Source of the DNA: Escherichia coli
Lineage (GTDB): Bacteria > Pseudomonadota > Gammaproteobacteria > Enterobacterales > Enterobacteriaceae
Assembly: GCF_024502345.1 (NCBI RefSeq)
Contig: NZ_JALDNN010000001.1
DNA length: 64,000 bases
Reading direction: 5' to 3' (one strand)
Shown: positions 1,182 to 40,167 of the stretch, piece by piece
Position numbering within the stretch: the stretch's first letter is position 1
Layout of the letters: every line of letters starts with the position of its first letter
Translations under genes and position numbers: made by a program
The notes under the pieces: generated by a model
What the model was told of the DNA's origin: nothing
Seen by the model: only the letters and a program-made list of their open reading frames with translations
Databases searched by the model: none

Positions 1182-1657
1182 ATGAGTGATATTATTTACC
1201 TGACCATAACCGGAGAACAACAAGGATGTATTTCCTCTCGTTGTGGAACGAGCGCATCAATAGGTAATCGCTGGCAGATTGGCCATGATGATGAAATCTT
1301 CGCGTTCTCGCTCTCTAATAGTATTACGAATACAGGCAAAGGGTCATAATTGCATGGCCTTAGTTTCTGTAAATTGATTGACAAAAGCTCCCCGTTACTT
1401 ATTAACGCTATTAACAATAACGAGCAGTTGTTCATGGAGTTTGACTTCTATCGGATCAATAGGTTTGGTCGATGGGAGAAATATTACAACATTCAACTCC
1501 GCGGCGCGCTCTTATCAGCAATCAATCACCTGTTTACTGAGAACAATCTGGATACAGAAGCCATCACTGTCAGTTATGAATATATACTCTCCAGGCATCT
1601 GATTGCTAATACTGAATTTAGTTATTTGGCATTTCCCGATAACTACAACCGTCTGTT
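1182..1657 (+). pseudogene. hcp: T6SS Hcp-family tube protein gene, disrupted by in-frame TAA (1347-1349) and truncated at 1657 by IS903-like insertion
   Basis: Translation MSDIIYLTITGEQQGCISSRCGTSASIGNRWQIGHDDEIF..GKGS*LHGLSFCKLIDKSSPLLINAINNNEQLFMEFDFYRINRFG.. matches Hcp family signature (KLIDKSSP, FxFYRIN); N- and C-parts are in the same frame separated by TAA. Confidence 0.7.
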
Positions 1658-2714
1658 GGCTTTGTTGAATAAATCGAACTTTTGCTGAGTTGAAGGATCA
1701 GATCACGTATCTTCCCGACAACGCAGACCGTTCCGTGGCAAAGCAAAAGTTCAAAATCACCAACTGGCCCACCTACAATAAAGCCCTCATCAACCGTGGC
1801 TCCATAACTTTCTGGCTGGATGATGAAGCTATTCAGGCCTGGTATGAGTCAGCAACACCTTCTTCACGAGGCAGACCTCAGCGCTATTCTGACCTTGCCA
1901 TCACGACTGTGCTGGTCATTAAACGCGTATTCAGGCTGACCCTGCGCGCTGCGCAGGGCTTTATTGATTCCATTTTTTCTCTGATGAACGTTCCGCTACG
2001 CTGCCCGGATTACAGCTGTGTCAGCAGGCGGGCAAAGTCGGTTAATGTCAGTTTCAAAACGCCCACCCGGGGTGAAATCGCACACCTGGTAATTGATTCC
2101 ACCGGGCTGAAGGTCTTCGGTGAAGGCGAGTGGAAAGTCAAAAAGCATGGCCAGGAACGCCGCCGTATCTGGCGTAAGCTGCATCTCGCCGTTGACAGTA
2201 AAACACATGAAATCATCTGCGCTGACCTGTCGCTGAACAACGTTACGGACTCAGAGGCCTTCCCCGGGTTAATCCGGCAAACCCACCGGAAAATCAGGTC
2301 AGCCGCCGCCGATGGCGCTTACGATACCCGGCTATGTCACGATGAACTGCGGCGTAAGAAAATCAGCGCGCTTATCCCTCCCCGAAAAGGTGCGGGTTAC
2401 TGGCCCGGTGAATATGCAGACCGTAACCGTGCAGTGGCTAATCAGCGAATGACCGGGAGTAATGCGCGGTGGAAATGGACAACAGATTACAACCGTCGCT
2501 CGATAGCGGAAACGGCGATGTACCGGGTAAAACAGCTGTTCGGGGGTTCACTGACACTGCGTGACTACGATGGTCAGGTTGCAGAGGCTATGGCCCTGGT
2601 ACGAGCGCTGAACAAAATGACGAAAGCAGGTATGCCTGAAAGCGTGCGTATTGCCTGAAAACACAACCCGCTACGGGGGAGACTTACCCGAAATCTGATT
2701 TATTCAACAAAGCC
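1658..2714 (+). mobile_element. IS903-family (IS5 family) insertion sequence, 1057 bp, 18-bp terminal inverted repeats, flanked by 9-bp direct target duplication CCGTCTGTT (1649-1657 and 2715-2723)
   Basis: Left end GGCTTTGTTGAATAAATCG at 1658, right end GATTTATTCAACAAAGCC ending 2714; identical 9-mers on both flanks read directly from sequence; single DDE transposase ORF inside. Confidence 0.9.
1735..2658 (+). CDS. IS903-family DDE transposase (307 aa if GTG start at 1735; six-frame ORF extends to 1690)
   Basis: IS5-family transposase motifs (DSTGLKVFGEGEWKVKKHG..RRIWRKLHLAVD); lies inside the inverted-repeat-bounded element. Confidence 0.8.
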   Translation: MAKQKFKITNWPTYNKALINRGSITFWLDDEAIQAWYESATPSSRGRPQRYSDLAITTVLVIKRVFRLTLRAAQGFIDSIFSLMNVPLRCPDYSCVSRRAKSVNVSFKTPTRGEIAHLVIDSTGLKVFGEGEWKVKKHGQERRRIWRKLHLAVDSKTHEIICADLSLNNVTDSEAFPGLIRQTHRKIRSAAADGAYDTRLCHDELRRKKISALIPPRKGAGYWPGEYADRNRAVANQRMTGSNARWKWTTDYNRRSIAETAMYRVKQLFGGSLTLRDYDGQVAEAMALVRALNKMTKAGMPESVRIA

Positions 2715-2852
2715 CCGTCTGTTTATACCACGGCCAAAAACTAAAGCTGGTAATGGTTCAAAACACTTAATAGTAAAGCGGTTGGCAGACTGCTTGCTGC
2801 TGGCGGCATATACAATGGGAATATCGAAGGATTCAGGGAAACAGCAGACAAG

Positions 2853-3395
2853 TTGGGGGGAGATGCACCTGCTGGTTACGATCAATTTATGGATAACAAA
2901 GGGTTACTCATCGCTGGTGCTTCAATAGTTGCTGGAGCAGTTCTGGGGAGAATGAGACTCCCTGATTTGGAATCACTTGAGCATTTCGGAGCCAGAGGAG
3001 CAGTATCAGGAAGACCATTTAATCCCGACCTTGCCGGTGGTCCAATAGAAAATCTGACGACAGATGGCGTAACAATCAACAGGGAAGGTATCGCTATTGT
3101 TGAAAAACACATAGCCAGATTTGGTCATGACCCTGTAAATGAAGTGATGATCAATAGACTGAAAGACATTGAGAAAGGAAAAATCCCCCCAGAACAAGTA
3201 GATCTTAACTTCTATACTCATGAGTGTCGGGAATATCAGCGTTACTGTAATCTTGGTTGGGAAACAGGACAACCTGATGGTGACGCAGGCTATGCACTCT
3301 GGAATCATACGCATACTGCTACTCTAGAAGATTATAAACTTAAGGGAGAACTTAATGACTTATACCACCAGGATGCACTTGACTATGATAACTGA
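2853..3395 (+). CDS. Orphan toxin-like C-terminal domain ORF (possible extension domain of the disrupted Hcp, Hcp-ET type); frame is open back to 2754 without ATG
   Basis: 180-aa ORF with TTG start and no ATG upstream in frame, directly downstream of hcp/IS; overlaps the next small ORF; no catalytic motif recognised by eye. Confidence 0.35.
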   Translation: MGGDAPAGYDQFMDNKGLLIAGASIVAGAVLGRMRLPDLESLEHFGARGAVSGRPFNPDLAGGPIENLTTDGVTINREGIAIVEKHIARFGHDPVNEVMINRLKDIEKGKIPPEQVDLNFYTHECREYQRYCNLGWETGQPDGDAGYALWNHTHTATLEDYKLKGELNDLYHQDALDYDN

Positions 3396-3630
3396 AACTG
3401 AAATTAACGTACTGAAAGTTATGGCTGAGAAAGATATAAACTGGAACTGGATGAATCTCGATCGCACACTATCCATAAGGCAAATTCCAGGATTCGGTAA
3501 TGTTGTTAACATTGTTAACAAATTAGCTAACGAGGGTTTGGTTATTATTGAGGATAGCGGACATAAGTCTATGCCTCACTACCACGTTACTGAAAAGGGA
3601 TACAATTTCGTGAAAAGTGAGAATAAATAA
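3385..3630 (+). CDS. Small ORF in immunity-protein position (81 aa from ATG 3385; alternative start 3355)
   Basis: ATG overlaps the last codons of the upstream ORF (ATGATAACTGA arrangement), typical of translationally coupled toxin-immunity pairs; function not recognisable. Confidence 0.3.
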   Translation: MITETEINVLKVMAEKDINWNWMNLDRTLSIRQIPGFGNVVNIVNKLANEGLVIIEDSGHKSMPHYHVTEKGYNFVKSENK

Positions 3631-3776
3631 CGTAGCGTTGATTACTGAACAAATCGCTCAGGATTATATTTTGCGTAAAAATGATTCGGTTATTTCTGTA
3701 TCTGAACGGGCGCAGATAGCAAAATGGCTTCCGGTGATGGAAGCCATCAGATTATTGGCAAAGTGCGCGTTGTTCA

Positions 3777-3808
3777 TGCCGGATGCGGCGTGAACGCCTT
3801 GTCCGGCC
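3777..3808. repeat. REP (repetitive extragenic palindrome) element
   Basis: GCCGGATGCGGCGTGAACGCCTTGTCCGGCC palindromic unit. Confidence 0.6.
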
Positions 3809-3914
3809 AACAAAACTCAAAAATTCAATAAATTGCATAAATTATGTAGGCCTGGTATCAGGCAGTTTTGCCTCTTTCATCGTACTGCAATTTACAGTGA
3901 CTCGTTAATATTCA

Positions 3915-6176
3915 TCATCCCCGACGCAAATTCTGCGCCGCCTGCACCATGTTCGCCAGTGCCGCGCGGGTTTCTGGCCAGCCGCGCGTTTTCAGGCCAC
4001 AGTCCGGGTTGACCCACAGGCGCTCTGCCGGAATGCGTTTTGCCGCTTTCTTCAGCAAGGCTTCAATCCATTCCACGCTCGGTACGTTTGGCGAGTGAAT
4101 GTCATAGACGCCTGGACCGATTTCATTCGGATAATCAAACTCTTCAAACGACTCCAGCAACTCCATGTCGGAACGCGAGGTTTCGATGGTGATGACGTCT
4201 GCATCCAGTGCCGCAATCGAATCCATGATGTCGTTGAACTCGCAATAACACATGTGAGTGTGGATTTGTGTGTCATCTTTCGCCACGGCGGCGTTGATAC
4301 GGAAGGCCTCCACGCCCCACTGGAGATATGCATCCCAGTCGCTACGACGCAGCGGTAAACCTTCGCGCAGCGCCGGTTCATCAATCTGGATGATGCCAAT
4401 TCCTGCGGCTTCCAGGTCCGCCACTTCATCACGCAGCGCCAGCGCAATTTGTTTGGCGATGGTTTCACGGCTGACATCTTCACGCGGGAACGACCAGCAG
4501 AGAATGGTCACCGGGCCAGTCAGCATCCCTTTCACCGGTTTATCAGTCAGAGATTGCGCATACTTCGCCCACTCCACGGTAATCGGTGCCGGGCGGCTAA
4601 TGTCACCAATGACAATCGGTGGCTTCACGCAGCGGGAACCGTAGCTCTGTACCCAACCGTTTTGCGTAAAGACAAATCCGTCGAGGTGCTCGCCAAAGTA
4701 TTCCACCATGTCATTACGCTCGGCCTCGCCATGTACCAGCACATCCAGTCCCAAACGTTCCTGTTCAACAATGGCCTGCTTGATATGTTCCGCAATGCCC
4801 GTGCGGTAGTTGTTGGCGTCGAGATTACCCTTTTTGAAATCCAGACGCAGGGTACGAATTTCCGTGGTTTGCGGGAAGGAACCAATCGTGGTGGTCGGCC
4901 ACGCTGGCAGTTTAAAACGCGCACGCTGGGCTTCGGCACGCACTTCATAGACATTCGCACGCTGGCTGTCCTGGGCGGTGATCGCCGCCAGACGCTTTTC
5001 TACTGCCGGGTTATGTACACGAGTAGAGTGACGACGCGCCTGAATTGGAGCGCTCCACTCTGCCAGAGCTGCCGTATCACCACTGTTCAGCGCATCTCGC
5101 AGCAGTGCCAGTTCATGACATTTTTGCAGGGCGAAGGCAAACCAGCTTTTCACTTCTGCATCAAGACGCGTTTCCACGCTCAGGTCGATGGGGCTGTGCA
5201 GCAACGAGCAGGAAGATGCCACCCACAAATCACGTTTGCCGACAATGTCCTTAATTTGCGCATATTTCTCAGTAAGATCGGCGCGCCAGACGTTACGACC
5301 ATTGATCAGACCCGCAGACAGCAGCCAGTCAGAAGGCAGGCGCTTGTGCAGTTCAACAACGTCATCTTTACCATGTACAAGGTCCACATGCAGCCCCTGA
5401 ACAGGCAGCGCAGTAATCGTGTCGAGATTTGGCGTTACGCCTTCAAAATAGGTGGTCAGCAGCAGTTTCACCTGTCCCTGGAGCGCGTCGTAAGCGGGTT
5501 TGTATGCGTCCAGCCACGCCTGTGGTAGTTCCAGTACCAGCGCGGGTTCATCAATCTGTACCCACTCGATGCCGCGTTTCGCCAGTTCTGCCAGCACTTG
5601 CTGATAAACCGGCAGAATGTCGTTCAGCAGGCTAAGGCGGTCAAACTGTTCACCTTTCACTTTCCCCAGCCACAGGTAAGTAACCGGCCCCAGCAGCACA
5701 GGCTTAACGTTGTGGCCCAGCGCCAGCGCCTCGTCCACTTCCTCCAGCAGCTGCGTCCAGGTCAGTTTGAACTGTTGGCCTTTAACGAACTCCGGCACCA
5801 TGTAGTGATAGTTGGTGTTAAACCATTTGGTCATTTCCGCTGCCGCCGCAGGTTCGCCAGTCGGCGCACGTCCACGACCAATACGGAACAGGGTGTCGAT
5901 ATCTACCGAACCGTCTTTGTTCTGATGACGTGGCGGAACATTACCCAGCAGCAAACTGGTGGTCAGTACATGATCGTACCAGGCAAAATCGCCCACCGGC
6001 AGCAGGTCGATACCCGCTTGCTTTTGTTGATCCCAGTGACGAGCACGCAGTTCACGCCCTACTGTCAGCAGTTCTTCACGCGTGGAGTTCCCCGCCCAAT
6101 AACTTTCTTGCGCTTTTTTCAGCTCGCGACGCAGGCCAACGCGAGGGAAACCGAGGGTGTGATTCAATATTGTCAT
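3915..6176 (-). CDS. metE: Cobalamin-independent methionine synthase
   Basis: 753-aa ORF, N-terminus [29 protein letters not shown] typical of MetE; divergent from metR as in E. coli. Confidence 0.97.
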
Positions 6177-6411
6177 TTTTCTTCCTCTAATTATATGTAA
6201 ATCCTATGGATTTTGAATTTAGGGAAGGCGGCAAGTTTATTCATCCCCGGGAGCTTACTGAAGTAAGTGACCGGGGTGGAGAAACGCAGCCAACGCACCA
6301 TAAATTTAAAAGACGAAGGATTTTAGCCGTCCAGATGTTTACACATCCATAATTGGCGGTTACTGTATATTCCTCAAGCGCAAATTATTCATGCCGAAGT
6401 GAAGGACTTTC
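6177..6411. promoter_or_regulatory. Divergent metE-metR control region (expected MetR and MetJ operator sites); individual sites not resolved
   Basis: Position between divergently transcribed metE and metR; contains a composite palindrome CCCCGGGAGCTTACTGAAGTAAGTGACCGGGG. Confidence 0.4.
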
Positions 6412-7365
6412 ATGATCGAAGTAAAACACCTGAAAACGCTACAAGCGTTGCGGAACTGCGGCTCTCTCGCAGCCGCTGCGGCGACGTTGCATCAGACGCA
6501 ATCCGCCCTGTCTCACCAGTTTAGCGATCTGGAACAACGCCTTGGCTTCCGGCTATTTGTGCGTAAGAGCCAGCCGCTACGCTTTACACCGCAGGGAGAA
6601 ATCCTGTTGCAACTGGCAAACCAGGTGCTGCCGCAAATCAGCCAGGCACTGCAAGCCTGCAATGAACCGCAGCAGACGCGTCTGCGCATTGCCATTGAGT
6701 GCCATAGCTGTATTCAGTGGCTGACGCCCGCGTTAGAAAATTTCCATAAGAACTGGCCGCAGGTAGAGATGGATTTTAAATCGGGCGTGACGTTTGACCC
6801 GCAGCCCGCGTTGCAACAGGGCGAGCTGGATCTGGTGATGACCTCCGATATCCTGCCGCGCAGTGGCCTGCATTATTCGCCGATGTTCGATTATGAAGTA
6901 CGCCTGGTGTTAGCACCTGACCATCCACTGGCGGCAAAAACGCGTATTACACCGGAAGATCTCGCCAGCGAGACGCTATTAATTTATCCGGTGCAGCGTA
7001 GTCGACTGGATGTCTGGCGGCATTTTCTTCAGCCGGCAGGCGTCAGCCCGTCACTGAAAAGCGTCGATAACACCTTATTGTTGATTCAGATGGTTGCCGC
7101 GCGGATGGGTATTGCCGCGCTACCGCATTGGGTAGTAGAGAGTTTTGAGCGCCAGGGTCTGGTGGTGACCAAAACCCTGGGCGAAGGCTTGTGGAGCCGA
7201 CTGTACGCCGCCGTGCGCGATGGCGAGCAGCGTCAGCCAGTTACGGAAGCGTTTATTCGCTCAGCGCGCAATCACGCCTGCGATCATCTGCCGTTTGTGA
7301 AGAGCGCGGAGCGACCCACTTACGATGCACCCACAGTGAGGCCAGGATCACCAGCGCGCCTGTAA
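6412..7365 (+). CDS. metR: LysR-family transcriptional activator of metE/metH
   Basis: 317-aa ORF with N-terminal LysR helix-turn-helix; divergent from metE. Confidence 0.95.
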
Positions 7366-8152
7366 TAAACGTTGGCCAGTGCGGCTGTTGGTGCCAGATA
7401 GCCAGGTTAACCAGCAGCCCTGCCGGAACGTGCATATTATTCATAATGCCCAGCGTTCCGGCGTCCACCTGCGTCGCGCCGTAGTTCCACATAAAGTAGC
7501 CAATCCCGGAAGCCACCACGCCAAGAAACACCAGAATGCCCCATTGCAACGTGGTTTGCGGCATTTTCTGCGCATTTCCCAGCAAGAACCATGCAATTAC
7601 CGCCACCAGGAACGCGCCAAGATAGAACCACGCAAAGGCGTTATGCTGCGGCATCGGGCGAGTTTCCATCAGGCGTTTGTAACCCACCATGCCGATGGCA
7701 AAAGTGATATTGGAGAGTTGCACCAGCAACAAGCCAGTCCAGAAATGGTCGGTGACCTGATCATAGCGAATAATCCCGGCACCAATCACCGCCAACAAGG
7801 CACTAAAAGCATATCCCCAGCGCAGACGGCGCTTACTCATGATGTCATAAATCAGCGTGATGTAGAGCGGCGTCAGTACGGTGAACAGCAGCAGTTCGGA
7901 AACCGTCAGGTAGAGATAAGCGCGGAAACTCAGCATATACATCACGCCGAGCTGCATCGCGCCCACCAGCATATACAGGCCGACTGTTTTCAGGCTATTG
8001 CCACGGGTACGCAGAAACGGCAGAAAAACGAGTGCCGCCAGGCCAACGCGCACCAGCACCGCAAAATAGCTATCGACGTGCCCCGCAAGGTACTCGCCAT
8101 AAAAGCTAAAGGAGAAGGCCCACAGAATCGTGGTGATGATAAGTAGCGCCAC
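7253..8152 (-). CDS. yigM: EamA/DMT-family inner membrane transporter (biotin transporter YigM)
   Basis: 299-aa polytopic membrane ORF; K-12 synteny; 3' end overlaps the metR 3' end convergently. Confidence 0.85.
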
Positions 8153-8227
8153 AATGGAAAACTCTTTGATTAACGAGTATCCATTGTAGCGAAGTATCAG
8201 GTTGACAACTGACCAAATAAAGAACGA

Positions 8228-9028
8228 TTACGATAAATAGAGTTTACGCAGATAATGCGGCACCGCGTCGTCGGCATTAGTACCAATCACTTCCAGCTCG
8301 GGATGAAGGTCTTTCAGACGCTGGTGCGCACTGCCCATAATGCAGCCTTTCCCCGCCATCGACAGCATTTCGGCATCGTTCATCCCGTCACCAAACGCAA
8401 TACAATCCTTCAGGCTGTAGCCCAGTTTCTTCGCCACCGCTTCCAGCGCATGGCCTTTTGAAACGCCGCCCGCCATCACTTCCAGACAGGTTAAGGTAGA
8501 GAAACTAACGTTGACGCGATCGCCCCAACGAGCGTTAATCGCCTGCTCCAGCGGCAGCAGTTGTTCATGGGAATCGCAGGTGAAGAACACTTTGCTGACG
8601 CCTTCCGGCTCCAGTAATCCAGGCTCATACAGCGCATATTTGAACACCGCTTCTTTAAAAAAGCGCATCTCTTCCGGGCGATGGCGATTCATAAACCATT
8701 CGTCGTCGCGATAAACGTTAGTAATGATGTCCGGATTGTCGTTGACTACGCCAAACAGATCGCTGGCAATGTCGCGATCCAGGTTATGAGCAAAAATCAG
8801 ATTGCCATCCAGATCGTGAACGCGCGCGCCGTTGGAGGTGATCATGTACGACTTGATCTCCAGATTATCGCGAATTTGCCCCACATCAACGTGGTGACGA
8901 CCGGTCGCAAACACAAAGTTGATGCCGCGCGCGGTGAGCAGCTTCAGGGTTTCTTTGGCGTAAGGGGATAACGTATGGTCGGGAGAAAGTAACGTGCCAT
9001 CTAAATCAGACGCAACAACCTGGTACAT
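8228..9028 (-). CDS. yigL: HAD-family Cof-type sugar/pyridoxal phosphate phosphatase
   Basis: Start taken at MYQVVASDLDGTLL (HAD motif I DxDGT); longer six-frame ORF to 9154 rejected; downstream of pldB in same orientation. Confidence 0.85.
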   Translation of the reverse strand: MYQVVASDLDGTLLSPDHTLSPYAKETLKLLTARGINFVFATGRHHVDVGQIRDNLEIKSYMITSNGARVHDLDGNLIFAHNLDRDIASDLFGVVNDNPDIITNVYRDDEWFMNRHRPEEMRFFKEAVFKYALYEPGLLEPEGVSKVFFTCDSHEQLLPLEQAINARWGDRVNVSFSTLTCLEVMAGGVSKGHALEAVAKKLGYSLKDCIAFGDGMNDAEMLSMAGKGCIMGSAHQRLKDLHPELEVIGTNADDAVPHYLRKLYLS

Positions 9029-9035
9029 AAGAAAT

Positions 9036-10058
9036 TTAAACCTCTGTAGAGCGGTTTCCGCTGGGTGAGTTATGCCTGTTGAAAAAATCAACAATGGCGT
9101 GGAGCGCGACTGAGCGCATTGCGTCCTTTTCAAAAAGGATCTCATGGTAAGCACCTTTAATTACCAACGGTCGTCCTCCTTCGACAGGATGGCCCGCGGC
9201 GGTGCGGAGTTCACAAAAACGGTCATGCATGCGGTTATCCACCACGCGTTCCTCTTCAGCCTGCAAGAGAAGCGTTGGCGTGGCGTCATCACCCGCACCG
9301 GCTAACACCTGTTCGCCAGCCAGAATACTTTCGCGTACCCAATGGTAGGTCGGCCCACCGACGCGAATCGTTGGGTCATCAGCATAGAAGCGTAAGTTAC
9401 GTCGATATCGCTGTCTGCTGTGGGTCAGTACGTTGATAGCAAACGGCAACGCGCGCCAGCGCCCGGTGCCTATTGCATAGCCATCACGGAAACGTGGATG
9501 CGCTTCGGCCCAGTTGAGGATCTGCCGTGCCATAAATGACGGCATACGAATCACGATCCCAAACATTGGCGCAGTTAGCGCAATGGCGTCACATACACCT
9601 GGATGGCGTTGCAGAAATAATGTGGAGATCGCACCGCCCATCGAATGTGCCAGTATATAGCGTTTACGCCACGGACCGGGCTGGACCTCCTGTTGCCAGA
9701 ATGCCGCCAGATCATCAACATAATCATTAAAGCGATTAACATGCCCGAGATGCGGATCGGCTAACAGGCGACCGGAACGTCCCTGCCCGCGATGGTCGAT
9801 GATTAAGACATCAAACCCCAAATGGAACAAATCGTAGGCCAGTTCCGCATATTTTACGTAGCTCTCAATACGCCCCGGGCAGATGACTACCACCCGGTCA
9901 TGGTGCTGTGCGCGAAAACGGACAAAGCGCACCGGAATGTCATCCACACCAGTAAACTCTGCTTCATCACGCTGACGCCAGAAATCAGTCAGCGGTCCCA
10001 TGGTAAAAGCAGCAAACGCGTTTTCTCTTGTTTCCCAGTCTTTTTGCTGTTGAAACAT
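9036..10058 (-). CDS. pldB: Lysophospholipase L2
   Basis: 340-aa alpha/beta hydrolase with HSMGG nucleophile motif; synteny. Confidence 0.9.
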   Translation of the reverse strand: MFQQQKDWETRENAFAAFTMGPLTDFWRQRDEAEFTGVDDIPVRFVRFRAQHHDRVVVICPGRIESYVKYAELAYDLFHLGFDVLIIDHRGQGRSGRLLADPHLGHVNRFNDYVDDLAAFWQQEVQPGPWRKRYILAHSMGGAISTLFLQRHPGVCDAIALTAPMFGIVIRMPSFMARQILNWAEAHPRFRDGYAIGTGRWRALPFAINVLTHSRQRYRRNLRFYADDPTIRVGGPTYHWVRESILAGEQVLAGAGDDATPTLLLQAEEERVVDNRMHDRFCELRTAAGHPVEGGRPLVIKGAYHEILFEKDAMRSVALHAIVDFFNRHNSPSGNRSTEV

Positions 10059-10168
10059 CGGGTAATCTGCCTCTTAAACCACGTAAAATCGTTTTTTTTA
10101 GCGTGCCTGACACAACGCTGCGACAGTAGCGTATTGTGGCACAAAAATAGACACACCGGGAGTTCATC

Positions 10169-10798
10169 ATGACCTTAGAATGGTGGTTTGCCTACCTGCT
10201 GACATCGATCATTTTAAGCCTGTCGCCAGGCTCTGGTGCAATCAACACTATGACCACCTCGCTCAACCACGGTTATCGCGGCGCGGTGGCGTCTATTGCT
10301 GGGCTTCAGACCGGACTGGCGATTCATATTGTGCTGGTTGGCGTGGGGTTGGGGACGCTATTTTCCCGCTCAGTGATTGCGTTTGAAGTGTTGAAGTGGG
10401 CAGGCGCGGCTTACTTGATTTGGCTTGGGATCCAGCAATGGCGCGCCGCTGGCGCAATTGATCTTAAATCGCTGGCCTCTACTCAATCGCGTCGACATTT
10501 GTTCCAGCGCGCAGTTTTTGTGAATCTCACCAATCCCAAAAGTATTGTGTTTCTGGCGGCGCTATTTCCGCAATTCATCATGCCGCAACAGCCGCAACAG
10601 CCGCAACTGATGCAGTATATCGTGCTCGGCGTCACCACTATTGTGGTCGATATTATTGTGATGATCGGTTACGCCACCCTTGCTCAACGGATTGCTCTAT
10701 GGATTAAAGGACCAAAGCAGATGAAGGCGCTGAATAAGATTTTCGGCTCGTTGTTTATGCTGGTGGGAGCGCTGTTAGCATCGGCGAGGCATGCGTGA
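10169..10798 (+). CDS. rhtB: LysE/RhtB-family homoserine/homoserine-lactone exporter
   Basis: 209-aa membrane ORF, LysE-family; divergent partner of rhtC as in K-12. Confidence 0.9.
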
Positions 10799-10806
10799 AA
10801 AATAAT

Positions 10807-10836
10807 GTCGGATGCGGCGTAAACGCCTTATCCGAC
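10807..10836. repeat. REP element
   Basis: GTCGGATGCGGCGTAAACGCCTTATCCGAC palindrome between convergent rhtB and rhtC. Confidence 0.6.
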
Positions 10837-10859
10837 TTACTCTGAAGACGCGTCTGGCA

Positions 10860-11480
10860 TCACCGCGAAATAATCAAATGAATGCCAAATCCGGCAAATA
10901 ACGCCCCGGCAAAACCATCAATCCACTTCGCCAGACGTTGATAACCACGGCGCATTTGCGGCAGGGCAAACAGGCTGGCAACGACGGTAAACCACGCCAG
11001 TGTTTCGATAATAATCAACGCGAAAATGCCCCAGCGCTCAGTGGTGCCGACGTTATCGCCGACAAACAGCGAGAATACCGAACCAAAGTAGATAATCGCT
11101 TTCGGATTAGCGAGATTGGTCAGTAAACCTTTCAGGAAACTGCGCCCGCTTTTCGCCAGCTCAATCTGTGGTGCAGGCGCAGATACAGCCTCTTTTTTCA
11201 GTGCACCGCGTAGCATCTGGTAACCCATCCAGCAGAGATACAGGCCACCGCCAACCATAATCAGCGTATGCAGCCAGGCCATTTTTTCGATAATCAAATG
11301 CAGGCCAAGCAACGCAATCCCAGCCCAAACCATTACACCGCAGGTAATGCCCAGCACGCCCATCATCGCTTCTTTACGGGAACGACTGACAGCGGTCTGA
11401 GAGACAAAAAAGAAATCGGGACCGGGGCTCATAAGCGCCACAATATGCACCATGGCGACGGTGAGAAATAACATCAACAT
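10860..11480 (-). CDS. rhtC: LysE/RhtB-family threonine exporter
   Basis: 206-aa membrane ORF paralogous to rhtB; synteny. Confidence 0.9.
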   Translation of the reverse strand: MLMLFLTVAMVHIVALMSPGPDFFFVSQTAVSRSRKEAMMGVLGITCGVMVWAGIALLGLHLIIEKMAWLHTLIMVGGGLYLCWMGYQMLRGALKKEAVSAPAPQIELAKSGRSFLKGLLTNLANPKAIIYFGSVFSLFVGDNVGTTERWGIFALIIIETLAWFTVVASLFALPQMRRGYQRLAKWIDGFAGALFAGFGIHLIISR

Positions 11481-11543
11481 ACATTTGACTCGCGGGGGAA
11501 ACGTTTACGGAGTCTTCATCCTGGCACTTTTTTATGCCGCTGA

Positions 11544-13379
11544 CTACTCTTCGTCGTCGCCGTCGACATGCGCACGAATCAGCGTCATAAACGGTTTGCC
11601 AAAGCGTTCCAGCTTGCGCATCCCAACGCCGTTAACGCTGAGCATTTCGCTGGCGGTGATCGGCATCTGTTCAGCCATCTCAATCAAGGTTGCGTCGTTA
11701 AACACCACGTACGGCGGGACATTGCTTTCATCGGCAATCGATTTACGCAGTTTGCGTAATTTGGCGAACAGTTTGCGATCATAGTTGCCGCCGAACGATT
11801 TCTGCATCGCTTTCGGTTTGAGCGCCACGATACGCGGCACGGCAAGTTGCAAAGAGGATTCGCCGCGCAGCACCGGGCGCGCGGCCTCTGTCAGTTGGAG
11901 GGCAGAATGCTGGGCAATATTTTGCGTCACCAGGCCGAGGTGAATCAGCTGGCGGATCACGCTCACCCAATGTTCATGGCTTTTATCACGGCCCATGCCA
12001 TAGACTTTCAGTTTGTCATGACCATAGTCGCGGATACGCTGGTTATTAGCACCACGAATCACTTCCACCACATAACCCATCCCAAACCGCTGATTCACAC
12101 GACCAATGGTGGAAAGCGCAATCTGTGCATCGGTTGAACCGTCGTACTGTTTCGGCGGATCGAGGCAGATATCGCAGTTTCCGCACGGCTCCTGCCGCCC
12201 TTCGCCAAAGTAGTTCAGCAGTACCAGACGACGGCAAGTTTGCGCTTCGGCAAACGCGCCCATCGCATTGAGTTTGTGGCGCTCGATATCCTGCAACTGC
12301 CCCTGCGGCTTCTCTTCCAGACAACGGCGCAGCCACGCCATATCAGCCGGATCGTAAAACAGCATCGCTTCCGCAGGCAGGCCATCACGCCCGGCGCGAC
12401 CGGTTTCCTGATAATAGGATTCGATATTGCGCGGAATATCAAAGTGGACCACGAAGCGAACGTTTGGTTTATTGATGCCCATGCCGAACGCCACCGTCGC
12501 CACCACAATTTGCAGGTCATCGCGCTGGAATTTCTCCTGCACGTCGGCGCGGACATTATTTTCCAGCCCGGCATGATAGGCCGCCGCGCTAATACCCTTG
12601 CTTTGCAGGCGCGCAGCGGTGTCTTCTACTTTCGCCCGGCTGTTGCAGTAGATAATGCCGGACTTACCGCGCTGTTCCTGCACGTAGCGCATCAACTGAT
12701 CGAGCGGTTTGAATTTCTCCATCAGCATGTAGCGAATATTCGGACGGTCAAAACTGCTGATTTGAATCAGCGGATCGTTCAGCCCCAGCAGGCGCACGAT
12801 ATCCTGGCGCGTGGTGTCGTCGGCTGTGGCGGTCAGCGCCATAAACGGCAGCGTCGGGAACCGCTGGCGCAACTGACCGAGCGCGGCATATTCCGGGCGG
12901 AAATCGTGGCCCCATTGGGAGATACAGTGCGCTTCATCAACGGCTAATAACACCGGATTCCAGTGCGCCAGATGCTCAAGAAAGTTATCCAGCATCAGGC
13001 GTTCCGGGGCGATATAAAGCAGACGAATTTGCCCGGTGCGGCAGCCTGTCATCACTTCAAGTTGCTGTTCGCGGGTTTGCGTCGAGTTAAGGCACGCCGC
13101 CGCCACGCCGTTGGCTTGCAGTTGATCCACCTGATCTTTCATCAACGAAATCAGCGGTGAAACAATCACGGTAAGGCCGTTTAGCAATAAGGCAGGAATT
13201 TGATAGCAAAGGGATTTTCCGCCACCGGTGGGCATGACGACCAGGCAATCGCGACCGGAAAGCACAGTGTCGATAATTTCTTCCTGGCCGGGGCGAAACT
13301 GTTGGTAGCCAAAGGTTTCTTGTAAAACCTGTTTAGCTCCGGACTCCAGATTCAACACTTCCGCCTGCGCCACATTCAC
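11544..13379 (-). CDS. recQ: ATP-dependent DNA helicase RecQ (start may be the GTG at 13373)
   Basis: Walker A PTGGGKS, DEAH box ([15 protein letters not shown]), zinc-binding CGNCDIC, C-terminal HRDC region. Confidence 0.95.
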
Positions 13380-13505
13380 CCCGATTGCCTGAAATAAAAA
13401 CAGGCGCTATTTTCAGCGCCTGCGCGAGAAACTGCAATGCTTTTAGTCTCTGAGAGGGTAATCCTGGATGCTGGATTCCAGATTTGCCAACCACTCAACC
13501 GTTCA

Positions 13506-14375
13506 TCAAAACAAATCGTTTAGCATAACCCCCACACCGACACGGGTCTGGTTGAAGTTATAGTCGATGAGCGATTCGCCATAGCCGCTGTAAACCTGAG
13601 TATAAAGGCGCACATGTTTGGTGATCGGGTAACTTAAGCCTAACTCCGCGCCGCCGTAGCCGGTGTTCCAGTTGTACTGTCCTTTCGCACTGAGCACCGC
13701 ATCACCGAGGTGATAGCCGATTTTAAGCTGGTAGTAACCCATATATTTGGTGATATCCGGGTTATCGTCAGTATTACCCACCACATACCACGGCTTCACT
13801 TCTACCAGCCAGTTACCGTTTTCTGCCATCAGGCGAGTATAAAGGCGGTTCCAGCTGCGGGAGGTCGGGTCTGAACGCCCGTTAGAGTCGTGGTTATACC
13901 CCATCTCCACATCGCGCAGTGTCCAGCCTGCAAAACGGTAATCGGTGGCAAAACCGAGGAACAATTGCGGTTCGTAGTTGGTTTCACGAAACGGTGAAGA
14001 CTCTTCGCTATTGGACAGTTGCCACCAGGATTTTTGCGTATAAGACGCACCCAACACCGAGTTCGGGCCTAAAATCCCACGCCACAGCGGAAATGCCAGG
14101 CTCAACTGAAACTTTACTTCATCCTTACGCGCATTTTCCGCCCAGTCGTAACTGGCAATCGCTTCTTTATTCAGATCGCTGGTTTGTGTGTAGATGAGGT
14201 AGTTGGTGTCATAAGGATAGAGCGTGAACGGATTATCATGCTCCTGCAGCATATTGGCGATAATACTGCCACGCACCGCTGGCGCGTCATGCACCTCTTT
14301 CACCGTTGCCTCTTGTGCATATACTGCCATAGGCAACATAAACACCGGCAACAACCAGCCCTGCAGAGTCCGCAT
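13506..14375 (-). CDS. pldA: Outer membrane phospholipase A
   Basis: 289-aa ORF with signal peptide; beta-barrel phospholipase A family; synteny. Confidence 0.95.
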   Translation of the reverse strand: MRTLQGWLLPVFMLPMAVYAQEATVKEVHDAPAVRGSIIANMLQEHDNPFTLYPYDTNYLIYTQTSDLNKEAIASYDWAENARKDEVKFQLSLAFPLWRGILGPNSVLGASYTQKSWWQLSNSEESSPFRETNYEPQLFLGFATDYRFAGWTLRDVEMGYNHDSNGRSDPTSRSWNRLYTRLMAENGNWLVEVKPWYVVGNTDDNPDITKYMGYYQLKIGYHLGDAVLSAKGQYNWNTGYGGAELGLSYPITKHVRLYTQVYSGYGESLIDYNFNQTRVGVGVMLNDLF

Positions 14376-14539
14376 CGGTCGTGTTCTCCGTAACGAATTA
14401 TTGATAAGGTGAATGTTTTTCTGCGGGCTATTTTACATACTTAACTCCATTGCCGTTAGTTATCCCTTCCTAAAGTAGAAACCAACAACAAAGAAGCATA
14501 AAATCAACATTTCATTAACCAATGAAGTGTAAGGATGAT

Positions 14540-15007
14540 ATGTCTGCCGTACTGACCGCTGAACAAGCCCTGAAATTAGTGGGTGAGATGTTTGTTTATC
14601 ACATGCCATTTAACCGCGCATTGGGGATGGAACTGGAGCGTTACGAAAAAGAGTTCGCACAGCTGGCCTTTAAAAATCAGCCGATGATGGTGGGTAACTG
14701 GGCGCAAAGCATTTTGCACGGCGGAGTCATTGCGTCGGCGCTGGATGTCGCCGCCGGTCTGGTGTGCGTGGGAAGTACCTTAACCCGCCACGAAACCATC
14801 AGTGAAGATGAACTACGCCAGCGGCTATCGCGGATGGGGACCATTGATCTTCGCGTTGATTATCTGCGCCCAGGCAGGGGCGAGCGTTTTACTGCTACCA
14901 GTAGCCTGTTGCGTGCAGGCAATAAAGTCGCCGTCGCCCGCGTTGAATTACACAATGAAGAACAGCTTTATATTGCCAGTGCCACCGCCACCTATATGGT
15001 AGGTTGA
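14540..15007 (+). CDS. yigI: PaaI/hotdog-fold thioesterase
   Basis: Start MSAVLTAEQ.. preceded by AAGGA; hotdog thioesterase family; synteny. Confidence 0.8.
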
Positions 15008-15058
15008 AGACATAAAAGCAGGTAAACTGCTGTTACCAATTAAAAATGAGTATTCCCG

Positions 15059-15946
15059 ATGGATGCAAAACAAACGCGGCAGGGCGTATTACTCGCTCTT
15101 GCCGCTTATTTTATTTGGGGTATTGCGCCAGCATACTTCAAGCTGATTTACTACGTGCCCGCCGATGAAATCCTGACGCATCGCGTGATCTGGTCGTTTT
15201 TCTTTATGGTGGTGCTGATGAGCATTTGCCGCCAGTGGTCCTATTTAAAAACGCTGATTCAGACGCCACAGAAAATTTTTATGCTGGCAGTCTCTGCCGT
15301 GCTGATTGGTGGCAACTGGCTACTGTTTATCTGGGCGGTGAACAATCACCATATGCTGGAAGCGAGCCTTGGTTACTTTATTAACCCGCTGGTGAACATT
15401 GTGCTGGGGATGATTTTCCTCGGCGAGCGATTCCGCCGGATGCAATGGCTGGCGGTGATTCTGGCGATATGTGGCGTGTTAGTCCAGCTGTGGACTTTTG
15501 GTTCGCTACCTATTATCGCGCTGGGACTGGCATTTAGTTTTGCCTTCTACGGTCTGGTACGCAAGAAGATTGCCGTTGAAGCGCAAACCGGCATGTTAAT
15601 TGAAACCATGTGGCTGCTGCCCGTGGCGGCAATTTACCTGTTTGCTATTGCCGACAGCTCAACCAGCCATATGGGGCAAAACCCGATGTCGCTGAATTTA
15701 CTGCTGATCGCCGCCGGTATTGTCACTACCGTACCGCTGTTGTGTTTTACCGCCGCTGCCACGCGCTTGCGTCTCTCAACGTTAGGCTTTTTCCAGTACA
15801 TTGGCCCGACGCTGATGTTCCTGCTGGCTGTGACGTTTTATGGTGAAAAACCGGGTGCCGATAAGATGGTGACTTTCGCCTTTATTTGGGTGGCGCTGGC
15901 AATTTTTGTGATGGATGCGATTTATACGCAGCGTAGAAAAAGTTAA
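15059..15946 (+). CDS. rarD: EamA/DMT-family membrane protein RarD
   Basis: 295-aa polytopic membrane ORF; synteny. Confidence 0.9.
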   Translation: MDAKQTRQGVLLALAAYFIWGIAPAYFKLIYYVPADEILTHRVIWSFFFMVVLMSICRQWSYLKTLIQTPQKIFMLAVSAVLIGGNWLLFIWAVNNHHMLEASLGYFINPLVNIVLGMIFLGERFRRMQWLAVILAICGVLVQLWTFGSLPIIALGLAFSFAFYGLVRKKIAVEAQTGMLIETMWLLPVAAIYLFAIADSSTSHMGQNPMSLNLLLIAAGIVTTVPLLCFTAAATRLRLSTLGFFQYIGPTLMFLLAVTFYGEKPGADKMVTFAFIWVALAIFVMDAIYTQRRKS

Positions 15947-15956
15947 GAATTAACAT

Positions 15957-16005
15957 GGGTAGGCCGTTTAATGAGCCTACCCACTGACTTATTTATCTTT
16001 TTTTG
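15957..16005. terminator. Hairpin GGGTAGGC/GCCTACCC followed by T-rich run; candidate bidirectional terminator after rarD
   Basis: 8-bp perfect stem read from sequence, then TTATTTATCTTTTTTTG. Confidence 0.55.
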
Positions 16006-16337
16006 AAAAAAATTAAGATAAGAAAAAGAACAATATTTGTTACAGGAAGTACCCCCAAAACTCCCCAGTACTTACTCCATCCTAGAGACATCGTATATCT
16101 ACCAAGGATTTGACAAAACCCAAAACTTAACCCTATACCTATACTTCTTAAATTTAATGTCGTAGTCAGGCTTAAAATAAATAGAACAAGGATGGTAATA
16201 GCCCACCACAATAACCATGCCTTAACAAAATCAGATTTTTTGCTGTAAGGTTCTTTACCCAAGAACAACTGCCAAAAGTTACCATTCCCCATATAGAATC
16301 CATTCCCCAAGATATTGTTTATAGAATAAAAATACAT
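15993..16337 (-). CDS. Small hypothetical inner-membrane protein (114 aa, two predicted TM helices), AT-rich
   Basis: ORF with hydrophobic segments AWLLWWAITILVLFILSL and WGVLGVLPVTNIVLFLILIFF; possibly the yigG-position gene; identity not verified. Confidence 0.4.
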   Translation of the reverse strand: MYFYSINNILGNGFYMGNGNFWQLFLGKEPYSKKSDFVKAWLLWWAITILVLFILSLTTTLNLRSIGIGLSFGFCQILGRYTMSLGWSKYWGVLGVLPVTNIVLFLILIFFKKR

Positions 16338-16616
16338 TCCAATTATATTTAATTAAAATATACCCCATCAATAAAAACTTACACACTCTAAATTACTACT
16401 GTATAGTTATCAATGCAAAGACTGCTATATTGCATATATATATGCAAACCTCATAATTCAGGTAATATATATATTCAAAACAATTATATATAAAAAACAA
16501 TGTAAAAAATATTCAAATCATCCATCAGAAATATATTCTACCCATCCAGGCTTGAGCATTTATCACGCTTTCAGTTCATAATCTATACATTAACATCATG
16601 GTCAATATTAATAACT

Positions 16617-16895
16617 TTGAATGATATCAACCTGGCTTTGAGTTTTATTCTGGTTATTAATAATACCTATGTAAATATCAATATTGGAGCAAAAAGAATA
16701 AGAGATACTGGATGTAAGGCAATCTACTTTGTATTGATTTCATTGGGTTTGACACTTTTTTCTATTATCTCTGCAGCAATTGAAGGGGTGAGATGTGAGT
16801 CATTAAGCGTCCAACTCAACGTGGCATGGATATTATTCACAACAATTATGTTATCTGCGATTCCCTCGGCTAAAATGTCGCTGTCAGCACACTAA
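16617..16895 (+). CDS. Small hypothetical membrane ORF (92 aa, TTG start, no ATG in open upstream frame); possibly a 5'-truncated remnant, DUF805-like RIRDTG motif
   Basis: Hydrophobic ORF; in-frame upstream sequence is open to 16506 without a Met codon. Confidence 0.3.
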   Translation: MNDINLALSFILVINNTYVNINIGAKRIRDTGCKAIYFVLISLGLTLFSIISAAIEGVRCESLSVQLNVAWILFTTIMLSAIPSAKMSLSAH

Positions 16896-16919
16896 CTTAC
16901 TCACAGCGACATCGTATAG

Positions 16920-17062
16920 TTACAGCCAGTTCTTGCGCTTAAAGTACAGATACGGTGCCAGGCCCGCGAGGATCATAAAGATAATCGCGCCTGGGTAGCC
17001 GAAACTCCACTTCAGTTCTGGCATAAACTCAAAGTTCATGCCATAGCTGGAGGCAATCGGCG
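16920..17062 (-). pseudogene. Duplicated, diverged 3' fragment of corA (last ~47 codons, about 95 percent identical to 19416-19558)
   Basis: Encodes [48 protein letters not shown], near-identical to the CorA C-terminus; homology ends abruptly near 17062. Confidence 0.85.
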
Positions 17063-17233
17063 TAGGAAAAAGTTTCCTAATCGGTAAATTCAATATTTTG
17101 TTATTAACAATGAGCAAGACCAATCATTAACGACGTTCTCTTCAGAGATGTAATGAAAAAATGTGAAGTGTACTTCTTTTTTAAATATTTTTTTACCCTA
17201 GCATTTGTTCTCAAATTGGGTAATGACTCCAAC

Positions 17234-17737
17234 TTATTGATAGTGTTTTATGTTCAGATAATGCCCGATGACTTTGTCATGCAGCTCCACCGATTTTGAG
17301 AACGACAGCGACTTCCGTCCCAGCCGTGCCAGGTGCTGCCTCAGATTCAGGTTATGCCGCTCAATTCGCTGCGTATATCGCTTGCTGATTACGTGCAGCT
17401 TTCCCTTCAGGCGGGATTCATACAGCGGCCAGCCATCCGTCATCCATATCACCACGTCAAAGGGTGACAGCAGGCTCATAAGACGCCCCAGCGTCGCCAT
17501 AGTGCGTTCACCGAATACGTGCGCAACAACCGTCTTCCGGAGCCTGTCATACGCGTAAAACAGCCAGCGCTGGCGCGATTTAGCCCCGACGTATCCCCAC
17601 TGTTCGTCCATTTCCGCGCAGACGATGACGTCACTGCCCGGCTGTATGCGCGAGGTTACCGACTGCGGCCTGAGTTTTTTAAATGGCGGAAAATCGTGTT
17701 GAGGCCAACGCCCATAATGCGGGCGGTTGCCCGGCAT
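17234..17737 (-). CDS. insB: IS1 InsB (expressed as InsAB' transposase by -1 frameshift)
   Basis: 167-aa ORF typical of IS1 InsB, overlapping insA 3' end. Confidence 0.95.
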
Positions 17738-17931
17738 CCAACGCCATTCATGGCCATATCAATGATTTTCTGGTGCGTACCGGGTTGAGAAGCGGTGTAA
17801 GTGAACTGCAGTTGCCATGTTTTACGGCAGTGAGAGCAGAGATAGCGCTGATGTCCGGCGGTGCTTTTGCCGTTACGCACCACCCCGTCAGTAGCTGAAC
17901 AGGAGGGACAGCTGATAGAAACAGAAGCCAC
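17656..17931 (-). CDS. insA: IS1 InsA
   Basis: 91-aa [46 protein letters not shown].. identical in character to IS1 InsA. Confidence 0.95.
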
Positions 17932-18029
17932 TGGAGCACCTCAAAAACACCATCATACACTAAATCAGTAAGTTGGCAGCATCACCCTCAAATTGATATT
18001 GAGCTTAAATATAACCAAGGAAAATGTAA

Positions 18030-18886
18030 ATGAATAACACATTACTTCCATCAATTAATATTCCCTGTACACTTTTCGAAACTATTAGTTTATTTGATGA
18101 TTATTCTGCTGATGATATGCAATATGGTGATATGGTGATATGGTAGAACAAGATTTTCTCTCACTCGGCCTAAGCGATATCTCAGCAAAAGTTGATCCTT
18201 ACAGACTTATTAAATACCATTTCCCTAGCCCAGGTTCTATTAATGTTGCTTTTAGTGCCTCAAGTTCCGGAACAAAAATATCACAACGTGAATGCACTGA
18301 TATTTTATTTGCAGAAATGAAAGAACTAGCAAAAATGTTTTCCTTTTTTGGACAATATAAAACACTTATCGAAGATCTGATTGAACATTTTAGATATGGA
18401 AATGGCAGCAATTTTCATAGCCAACAATTAAATTTATCTTTTCATGAAAAAATAAATAAATATGGTTATAATAGTCCAATACGAATAATCAAAGAATGTA
18501 TCGAAAATGGCATTAATTCAACTCCCTCGACAGGATACCAACCTCTTATCCTGCAAAGCATTAAAACCAAATTACTTTCATCAAGACTAAATAAATTTAA
18601 TGACTTCGAGGACAGTTTTAATGGCTTAGGAATCAGTGTTCATGATATTTCAGCTCAAAAAATATCTCTTTTAAGTTTTCAAAAATACGCTATAGGATGG
18701 AGTGCAACAATTCATTTTGTAGCACAGGACCACTTCGGTCTTGATGTAACTGATATCAAAAACAAGACTTACAGCAAATATAGATTTTTTCGCATATGGT
18801 TCTTTTTACAACGGCATAAAGACTTTGCTTTCAAACCTTTTTTCACCAATTTTAACACTATCGAAAGAATCGAAAATTATCTATGA
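18030..18886 (+). CDS. Hypothetical protein, first gene of accessory two-gene cassette; currently split: 38-codon leader ORF (18030-18146) plus 248-aa ORF (18140-18886) separated by an 8-bp tandem-repeat frameshift
   Basis: ATG 18030 preceded by AAGGA at 9 nt; removing one 8-bp repeat unit fuses the two ORFs into about 283 aa; AT-rich; no recognisable family motif by eye. Confidence 0.55.
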
Positions 18887-19374
18887 AAAGCAAACTCCAG
18901 AAAATTATATTATGTTTATTTCTTCTATGCTGCATCTATAATTTATGGACATTGCGTCCTGTACAGATTTTGTATACATACTCTGATGCTGGCAATTCAG
19001 TCTTTCTGGTCGTTGATCATCTGCCATGGACTGACAGCGATAAAATAAATTGGTATCTGAAGCATCAGAATGAAATTAAAAATCAACATCCCCTACCAGA
19101 AGGTAGTTGGCATACCTGGTATGTCATTGATATCGGTAATGGCTTCACTGACTATAAAAAATATATCGAAGGGCCGTATGAAGATCTCTACTGTTTCCCG
19201 ACAATTAAGAGCAATGATAATTGCATCGTGAAAAATTACTTAATGGTTATTAATGAATACCCTTATCGTAACACTCATATTGTTATTAACGATTTTACTG
19301 AGTATCAATTAACACAAGAAAATAAAATAGAGCGAGTTTTCAATCCGCATGACTTTAAAAAAGACAATTTTTAG
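18883..19374 (+). CDS. Hypothetical signal-anchored/exported small protein (163 aa), second gene of cassette, translationally coupled (ATGA overlap)
   Basis: N-terminal hydrophobic segment KIILCLFLLCCIYNLW; start overlaps stop of upstream gene; AT-rich. Confidence 0.6.
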   Translation: MKSKLQKIILCLFLLCCIYNLWTLRPVQILYTYSDAGNSVFLVVDHLPWTDSDKINWYLKHQNEIKNQHPLPEGSWHTWYVIDIGNGFTDYKKYIEGPYEDLYCFPTIKSNDNCIVKNYLMVINEYPYRNTHIVINDFTEYQLTQENKIERVFNPHDFKKDNF

Positions 19375-19380
19375 AAATAA

Positions 19381-19408
19381 GCCGGATAAAAAAATAGCTT
19401 TATCCGGC
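19381..19408. terminator. REP-like hairpin GCCGGATAAA/TTTATCCGGC between convergent cassette gene and corA
   Basis: 10-bp perfect inverted repeat with 8-nt loop read from sequence. Confidence 0.5.
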
Positions 19409-19415
19409 ACTCATA

Positions 19416-40035: not shown

Positions 40036-40062
40036 GTCGGCGCTATCGCTGAGATCTGCCTT

Positions 40063-40167
<105 letters not shown>

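Follow-up and report, generated by a model that had tools for sequence, protein, structure and literature searches.

An intact IS1 in the AT-rich leader of an orphan DUF3289/DUF943 cassette of Escherichia coli, and recurrent IS1 insertion at the same locus

Introduction

Insertions of IS1 are classically polar, and IHF sites are known at the ends of the element and at one plasmid hot-spot. In the bgl operon, IS1 and IS5 insertions in the AT-rich upstream region are recovered under selection and activate the silent operon. IS1 duplicates 8 or 9 bp of its target on insertion (PMC12428005), and a preference for A/T-rich DNA is attributed to it (Zerbib 1985, as cited in PMC9330008). The ends of the element are also described as carrying an outward-facing −35 that forms hybrid promoters with a suitably spaced −10 (Prentki 1986, as cited in PMC8764528). 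One IS1 insertion in E. coli ST131 raised transcription of afaA by ∼7 log2-fold, whereas two other IS1 insertions did not (PMC8764528).

In the periplasm of E. coli, a DUF3289 protein acts as a toxin that rounds the cells; its structure resembles colicin M, and a DUF943 partner neutralises its toxicity (Geller et al. 2024, PMC11148199). [quoted passage not shown] The locus described here lies in a 64-kb stretch of E. coli DNA, the whole of which was analysed and is referred to as the window. It carries adjacent, overlapping genes that share both Pfam domains with the T6EC1/T6IC1 pair of Geller et al. 2024 and, like the orphan effector of A. jandaei, it is an orphan, lying apart from T6SS clusters. 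The pair differs from the characterised DUF3289 effectors in that its effector gene is frameshifted, and from that of A. jandaei in that the immunity protein of the latter is a different, 95-aa membrane protein unlike DUF943. T6SS-dependent delivery is known in A. jandaei, whereas for the corA-linked E. coli pair it is predicted. The cassette is thus a predicted type VI secretion effector/immunity pair whose toxicity and delivery are known from homologues.

Results

The element between the upstream DNA and the first gene of this cassette is a complete IS1, as the initial annotation had proposed, and the end repeats, open reading frames and Pfam domains confirm its coordinates to the base (Table 1). 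It has a length of 768 bp, inverted repeats of 23 bp, insA and insB′ with the A6C motif, a DDE domain and a target duplication. The IS1 end pattern GGTRATG...CCAACTTAYTGAT matches the 64-kb window twice, both times at the ends of the element and with 0 mismatches; 0 matches are expected in a window of this size and 0 were found in 100 shuffles. The GC content is 53.6% for the element and 27–33% for the cassette island, against 51% for the whole window. The copy at 17219-17986 shows 0 differences from IS1 copies in AR_0128, 2009C_3689, 88-19539 and EC12, and RefSeq labels identical copies 'IS1-like element IS1B family transposase' (WP_095033700.1), annotated as intact. The same sequence was found at at least 5 other positions in other genomes, which is compatible with the window copy being competent for transposition. 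Compared with the IS1B-family isoform of IS1, the window copy is the same in length, repeats, A6C motif and 9-bp duplication, with no difference at the level of the element, and position alone sets it apart from known IS1B-family copies.

Table 1. Features of the IS1 insertion and the adjoining cassette, in window coordinates
Feature	Position	Strand	Basis or remark
Duplicated corA 3′ end, left island edge	16920..17066	-	135/147 bases identical to 19416-19562
AT-rich upstream region, 27% GC	17085..17218	+	IS1 lies between region and gene
9-bp target-site duplication, left copy, CTCAAATTG	17210..17218	.	single in IS1-free alleles
IS1, complete, 768 bp	17219..17986	transposase genes on -	end repeats, ORFs, Pfam
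IRR (IS1 right-end inverted repeat), GGTAATGACTCCAACTTATTGAT, 23 bp	17219..17241	+	
insB′ reading frame	17234..17737	-	ORF and Pfam; DDE_Tnp_IS1, 261 bits
insA, 91 aa	17656..17931	-	ORF and Pfam; Zn_ribbon_InsA and HTH_Tnp_IS1
TTAAAAAAC (A6C) programmed −1 frameshift motif	17674..17682	-	joins insA to insB′
Terminator-like hairpin inside IS1	17846..17860	+	
Promoter-like site in IRL reading into insA, CTGCCA-16-TATGAT	17952..17979	-	consensus match
IRL (IS1 left-end inverted repeat), GGTGATGCTGCCAACTTACTGAT, 23 bp	17964..17986	-	on cassette side
Hybrid promoter-like site facing cassette, TTGGCA-16-GATATT	17973..18000	+	9/12 consensus match
9-bp target-site duplication, right copy, CTCAAATTG	17987..17995	.	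single in IS1-free alleles
DUF3289 (YPO3983 family) 5′ fragment	18030..18146	+	38 codons, then premature TAG
8-bp units ATATGGTG-ATATGGTG-ATATGGTA	18122..18145	+	three, against two in intact alleles; frameshifting tandem duplication
DUF3289 remainder in original frame, 248 codons	18140..18886	+	Pfam PF11692, 245.6 bits
DUF943 gene, intact, 163 aa	18883..19374	+	PF06092, 93.2 bits

The 9-mer CTCAAATTG occurs twice in the 64-kb window, each occurrence touching one end of IS1. A random 9-mer is expected ∼0.8 times in the window, and the prior probability that the two 9-mers adjoining the element are identical is ∼4^-9. A comparison with IS1-free alleles, which had been suggested as a check, gave the expected empty site: in HCP4S3_I4, O157:H7 JEONG-1266 and AR_0128 the sequence reads ...TTTGTTCTC(A/G)AATTGATATTGAGC..., with the 9-mer present once and exactly at the junction. 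The same empty site with a single 9-mer is found in 10 further draft or metagenome contigs, giving a total of 13 IS1-free sequences. The earlier claim of genuine transposition is therefore borne out by a perfect 9-bp duplication, by empty-site alleles and by an intact element: the IS1 transposase made its usual staggered cut and so gave rise to the 9-bp duplication. The insertion was also correctly placed at 44 bp before the cassette start codon: counted from the last base of IS1 (17986), the A of the start codon (18030) is 44 positions further on. The 43 bases between them contain the right copy of the 9-bp repeat and an AAGGAAA ribosome-binding site (18017-18023).

IS1 can also belong, as one of two arms, to a larger Tn9-like composite element, or mark the place where an IS1-mediated rearrangement occurred, and other strains show such cases at the same locus: in ZJ3920 an IS1 links catA1 to the cassette, and in EC12 and O177:H21 there are IS1-adjacent deletions, in each case without a duplication. 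For the window, however, the chance of such an origin is close to negligible. A search with the end pattern found no second IS1 within the 64-kb window, the perfect 9-bp duplication flanks the single copy, and the flanks on both sides are collinear with IS1-free genomes. Since the element is the only IS1 in 64 kb, it is a simple insertion and not a composite transposon, in agreement with the initial annotation. Taken together, an intact, standard IS1 has very probably entered the leader (25% GC) of the orphan DUF3289 and DUF943 cassette by simple transposition.

The gene order around the locus, pldA-yigI-rarD ... corA-yigE-uvrD, is that of an E. coli-type chromosome, with the cassette located between a 3′ fragment of corA and corA itself. 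The corA-linked pair is present in ∼2,632 of the 5,426 complete E. coli genomes, with identities of 88–99.9%, and ∼169 bp of AT-rich upstream DNA accompany the cassette in all of the several genomic architectures seen. In the window the domains DUF3289 and DUF943 are encoded side by side, as in an effector-immunity pair, and the effector frame is interrupted. PF11692 is recognised in the 38-aa N-terminal piece of DUF3289 (28.3 bits) as well as in the longer remainder. The DUF943 start overlaps the DUF3289 stop by 4 nt (ATGA), and the DUF943 protein is 98% identical to the O157 protein. By analogy with its homologues, it is the predicted cognate immunity protein.

The frameshift that had been noted in the first cassette gene is real and is due to one extra 8-bp unit. 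Intact alleles read ...GCA ATATGGTG ATATGGTA GAA..., whereas the window has an additional ATATGGTG, and this tandem duplication brings a TAG stop (18144-18146) into frame after codon 38. Among complete genomes the three-unit sequence is rare, being present in at most 2 of 1,702 matching ones at 99% identity, the only one listed being HCP4S3_I4. Its scarcity identifies the repeat as a lineage marker, and the idea that it is a phase-variable switch was rejected. HCP4S3_I4, a pig isolate, has the 8-bp duplication and lacks IS1. Across window positions ∼16–25 kb it differs from the window at 8 positions, against a difference of ∼1% on either side, which indicates that the two share this block by descent or recombination. 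Ten draft or gut-metagenome contigs encode an identical DUF943 protein; the duplication is present in 8 of them, 2 are intact, and the IS1 site is empty in all 10.

One complete genome and eight contigs have the frameshift but no IS1; the frameshifted allele thus circulates widely in the absence of the element, and the frameshift is the older of the two mutations. The exact junction of the window was found in none of the 5,426 complete E. coli genomes, nor in the metagenome contigs or GTDB species representatives searched, and by this measure the insertion appears to be private to this lineage. The order was therefore an intact gene, an 8-bp duplication that spread, and then the private IS1 insertion. 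The initial annotation took the insertion and the frameshift for two independent hits on one gene pair. They are indeed independent mutations, but they were sequential rather than parallel, and DUF3289 alone is inactivated, not both genes. IS1 thus came to lie next to an effector gene that had been inactivated before, and DUF943 is intact.

Upstream DNA that belongs to the cassette, ∼134 bp in length (17085-17218), is now separated from it by IS1 and, because IS1 is polar, any transcription from there is probably blocked. Within the IRL, the promoter-like site that reads into insA lies at what we take to be the location of the known insA promoter (IS1 pIRL). The site facing the cassette combines a −35-like TTGGCA within the IRL with a −10-like GATATT that consists of the last base of the right 9-bp copy and the next five bases. 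It has in common with the afaA hybrid promoter (PMC8764528) a −35-like hexamer in the IS1 end, a 16-nt spacer, an A/T-rich −10-like hexamer and a downstream ribosome-binding site; the afaA promoter raises transcription, whereas the window site is a 9/12 match to the consensus and the first gene behind it is a pseudogene. TTGGCA-16-GATATT is possibly a weak hybrid promoter, and the IRL end could in this way keep both the dead effector gene and the intact immunity gene transcribed at a low level. The number of promoter-like sites in the region, 3 against 1.9 ± 1.5 in shuffles, is barely above expectation, and inside the cassette such sites are no commoner than in shuffled sequence. The same promoter-like site is present at the IS1 junction of strain STEC388, and a consensus scan found none at the junctions in strains EC19 and KE51. 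The idea that the upstream insertions share a hybrid promoter was accordingly rejected.

A stronger effect, in line with the uncoupling that the initial annotation had thought probable, would follow if IS1 had severed the cassette from a native promoter within 17063-17218, thereby silencing both genes as a second inactivating hit. IS1 does sit between the AT-rich upstream DNA on one side and the ribosome-binding site with the start codon on the other, the 43 nt left between IS1 and the ATG offer little room for a complete native promoter and leader, and to the established polarity of IS1 is added a terminator-like hairpin on the + strand within the element. However, in the native upstream region the consensus scan gave no sigma-70-like site on the + strand, and that region is not more conserved than coding sequence. 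Between the O157 and Nissle/C1 alleles, identity is 84–85% upstream and 88% in the effector coding sequence, and upstream conservation was rejected as a sign of a native promoter. Moreover, a hybrid promoter-like site faces the cassette, and the effector was already dead, so that nothing but expression of the immunity gene was left for IS1 to inactivate. We therefore regard silencing of the pair by loss of a native promoter as tentative and, on balance, somewhat doubtful. Neither the literature nor a look-up by locus name yielded usable records of where transcription of the E. coli DUF3289-DUF943 pair starts or of how the pair is expressed. We infer that the window insertion is most likely selectively neutral.

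Complete E. coli genomes were searched with the window arrangement and, as a control, with the same arrangement carrying IS1 reversed, and the IS1 positions were mapped onto the O157 reference, which has the start codon at 2154. In these coordinates the window insertion duplicates 2111-2119 (CTCAAATTG). STEC388 has an IS1 that duplicates the same 2111-2119 in the same orientation, and it is the only complete E. coli genome with this insertion site, which it carries in a different allele. In EC19 the duplicated bases are 2124-2132, and its IS1 differs from that of the window by 53 nt. KE51 has IS1 in the opposite orientation with an 8-bp duplication of ∼2100-2107. In ZJ3920 the Tn9-like IS1 next to catA1 abuts 2143. 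There are thus five independent IS1 events, the window included, within ∼45 bp upstream of the effector gene in different strains.

The interior of the effector gene has also received IS1, at four other sites and at one of them twice. Strains 2009C_3689 and MB56 share the target TAATAGTCC, with different IS1 isoforms in opposite orientations. CH4797 has an insertion at 2398-2406, from which the insertions of the EC12 clade and O177:H21 derive by adjacent deletions, and strain 104 has one at 2770-2778. No IS1 was seen in DUF943 among the complete E. coli genomes surveyed. An identical 9-bp target has accordingly been re-used in two cases at this locus, once in the leader (the window and STEC388) and once in the effector gene (2009C_3689 and MB56).

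The leader pair could in principle go back to one ancestral event that spread by recombination, the IS1 interior having later been overwritten by gene conversion from other IS1 copies, since target and orientation are identical in the window and STEC388 and E. coli recombines freely here, as the mosaic block shared with HCP4S3_I4 indicates. Several details make this improbable. The two IS1 sequences are separated by 10 differences scattered between 17230 and 17725, and the flanks differ on both sides of the insertion. Furthermore, the variable base of the duplication is A in both window copies and G in both STEC388 copies (CTCGAATTG), in each case the base of the respective IS1-free allele.

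Under a crude model that treats each chromosomal IS1 copy as an independent uniform event, which makes the expectation an upper bound, and with an interval size chosen post hoc, the 45-bp leader has 4 events excluding the window against at most 0.25 expected (P ∼1e-4), and an interval of 100 bp gives P = 0.003. Over the 2.9-kb segment as a whole, ∼29 of ∼2,600 carriers have IS1 in a megablast survey, which may have overlooked insertions in alleles of the greatest divergence (88% identity), and this is roughly the chance level given ∼10 IS1 copies per 5-Mb genome. Region-wide enrichment was hence rejected, and the cluster in the ∼45-bp leader and the exact-site re-uses alone stand out. An apparent orientation bias was likewise rejected: in the first survey of the locus, 8 of 9 copies of IS1 had the window orientation, the reversed-IS1 query then gave 16 more genomes with the opposite orientation, and the bias is an ascertainment artefact that arises because BLAST pieces are joined on one strand only.

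Discussion

Taken by itself the event is routine, one more chromosomal IS1 in E. coli that adjoins an existing pseudogene, and it is of an already-known kind with a textbook mechanism. Its practical use lies in annotation and strain typing, as an apparently private insertion that is later than a frameshift allele circulating in gut and livestock E. coli. The new part is the exact-site re-use and the clustering of IS1 in the cassette leader. The wider point is that a common orphan T6SS effector/immunity cassette repeatedly collects IS1, in its leader as well as in its coding region. The locus is a natural test case both for the choice of targets by IS1 in AT-rich, horizontally acquired DNA and for the decay of an effector gene against the persistence of its immunity gene.

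The target region has a GC content of 25%, and we infer that the ∼45-bp leader looks like a local IS1 hot-spot, a reading that is consistent with the known A/T preference of the element. The presence of the cluster in other strains points to target preference and not to anything special about the window strain. An IHF site was considered as a determinant of the hot-spot and rejected, as no match to the consensus WATCAANNNNTTR with up to 1 mismatch was found around the empty site; the analysis gave no specific determinant of the hot-spot.

The alternative to target preference is adaptive rewiring, in which selection favours IS1 insertions in the leader for replacing or de-repressing a native promoter under H-NS-type silencing, so that the orphan immunity gene DUF943 stays expressed. 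The routes proposed for this are the outward −35 of IS1 or the splitting of an AT-rich silencer. Five independent events in ∼45 bp would be in keeping with selection, as would the intact DUF943 of the window, the hybrid promoter-like site in the window and STEC388 and the documented precedents for IS1 hybrid promoters. In addition, of the 12 near-matches to the H-NS motif TCGATAAATT in the window, 4 lie in the island that extends from the corA fragment to corA: a single one is in the upstream DNA and the other three are within the genes. This enrichment simply tracks AT-richness, however, and is a lead rather than evidence.

Selection is made less likely by the occurrence of both IS1 orientations, by the lack of a promoter-like site at 2 of the 4 upstream junctions checked (those of EC19 and KE51) and by the fact that the coding region is hit as well. 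IS1 at four sites in the effector gene is what target preference in AT-rich DNA would give, and such insertions are found in a mere handful of the ∼2,600 carriers. We therefore consider adaptive rewiring unlikely. The more specific proposal that the leader is a selected landing pad for IS1, at which an H-NS-silenced native promoter is swapped for a hybrid promoter at the IS1 end, seems to us slightly less probable still. Were it correct, lineages that have lost the effector would keep the immunity gene expressed and so be protected against neighbours still firing the toxin.

The locus resembles the bgl operon in that IS insertions recur in either orientation in a short AT-rich region upstream of a locus that is probably bound by H-NS. 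The two differ in that the bgl insertions are selected and activating, whereas at the window locus IS1 is found in the coding region as well.

IS1 insertions at the locus

The 9-mer TAATAGTCC at positions 18469-18477, within the DUF3289 effector gene of the cassette, is the IS1 target in both E. coli 2009C_3689 and E. coli MB56. The two strains carry IS1 there in opposite orientations and as different isoforms, which makes this the second site at the locus that IS1 has used more than once to the exact base. Upstream of the island, the AT-rich segment that holds the cassette and the window's own IS1, this lineage carries a 32%-GC segment (15993-16895) at the place of yigG-yigF of K-12, and IS1 has inserted in it at three different points in other strains (AR_0128, 88-19539 and EC12). 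In E. coli ZJ3920 (NZ_CP020545.1), the cassette is preceded by the chloramphenicol acetyltransferase gene catA1 and an IS1 (positions 1-1580 of locus sequence L019); the junction lies 11 bp ahead of the DUF3289 start codon and has no target duplication. This IS1 belongs to a Tn9-like resistance region or a rearrangement.

Locus architecture and relation to HCP4S3_I4

The left edge of the island is formed by a 147-bp copy of the corA 3' end (16920-17066), identical to 19416-19562 at 135 of 147 bases. B2-type strains (Nissle, C1) have the order rarD-cassette-corA, with neither the corA fragment nor yigF/yigG; K-12 has yigG-yigF and no cassette. The locus therefore has at least four architectures.

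Between ∼16000 and 25000 the window differs from HCP4S3_I4, an IS1-free pig isolate with the same frameshift duplication in the DUF3289 gene, at only 8 positions over about 9 kb, while the DNA on either side is ∼1% different. The block with the frameshifted cassette is most probably a segment shared by recombination.

Coordinates and features of open reading frames in the window
Feature	Position	Strand	Remark
Hcp/TssD-like ORF fragment	1350-1688		broken up by transposase ORF
Transposase ORF, 322 aa	1690-2658		interrupts Hcp/TssD-like ORF
180-aa ORF	2853-3395		after transposase ORF
91-aa ORF	3355-3630		also after transposase ORF
114-aa ORF	15993-16337	-	no Pfam hit
92-aa ORF	16617-16895		sub-threshold DUF805 match
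143-aa ORF, then large ORFs of 325 aa and 440 aa	within 27429-30256

Other differences in gene content

A second orphan module related to type VI, besides the cassette, lies at 1350-3630. Its transposase looks IS903/IS5-family-like, the family being judged by eye only, and the 180-aa ORF may encode the toxin portion at the C-terminus of an Hcp fusion. The counterpart tssD in HCP4S3_I4 carries the annotation of a partial, frameshifted gene, and after it comes an IS3 transposase in place of the 322-aa ORF. With the Hcp/TssD-like ORF interrupted and the DUF3289 gene frameshifted, the window has two T6SS-type toxin genes that are broken, by mobile elements or frameshifts.

About 2.5 kb between lptM/dapF and cyaY (27429-30256) is missing from HCP4S3_I4, where the sole annotation is a 'DKNYY family' pseudogene remnant. 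In the aslA/aslB region, a stretch of about 1.6 kb (38518-40098) has no counterpart in that isolate, which is annotated there solely with a truncated arylsulfatase pseudogene. Between hemY and aslB, HCP4S3_I4 carries a copy of IS200C that is absent from the window.
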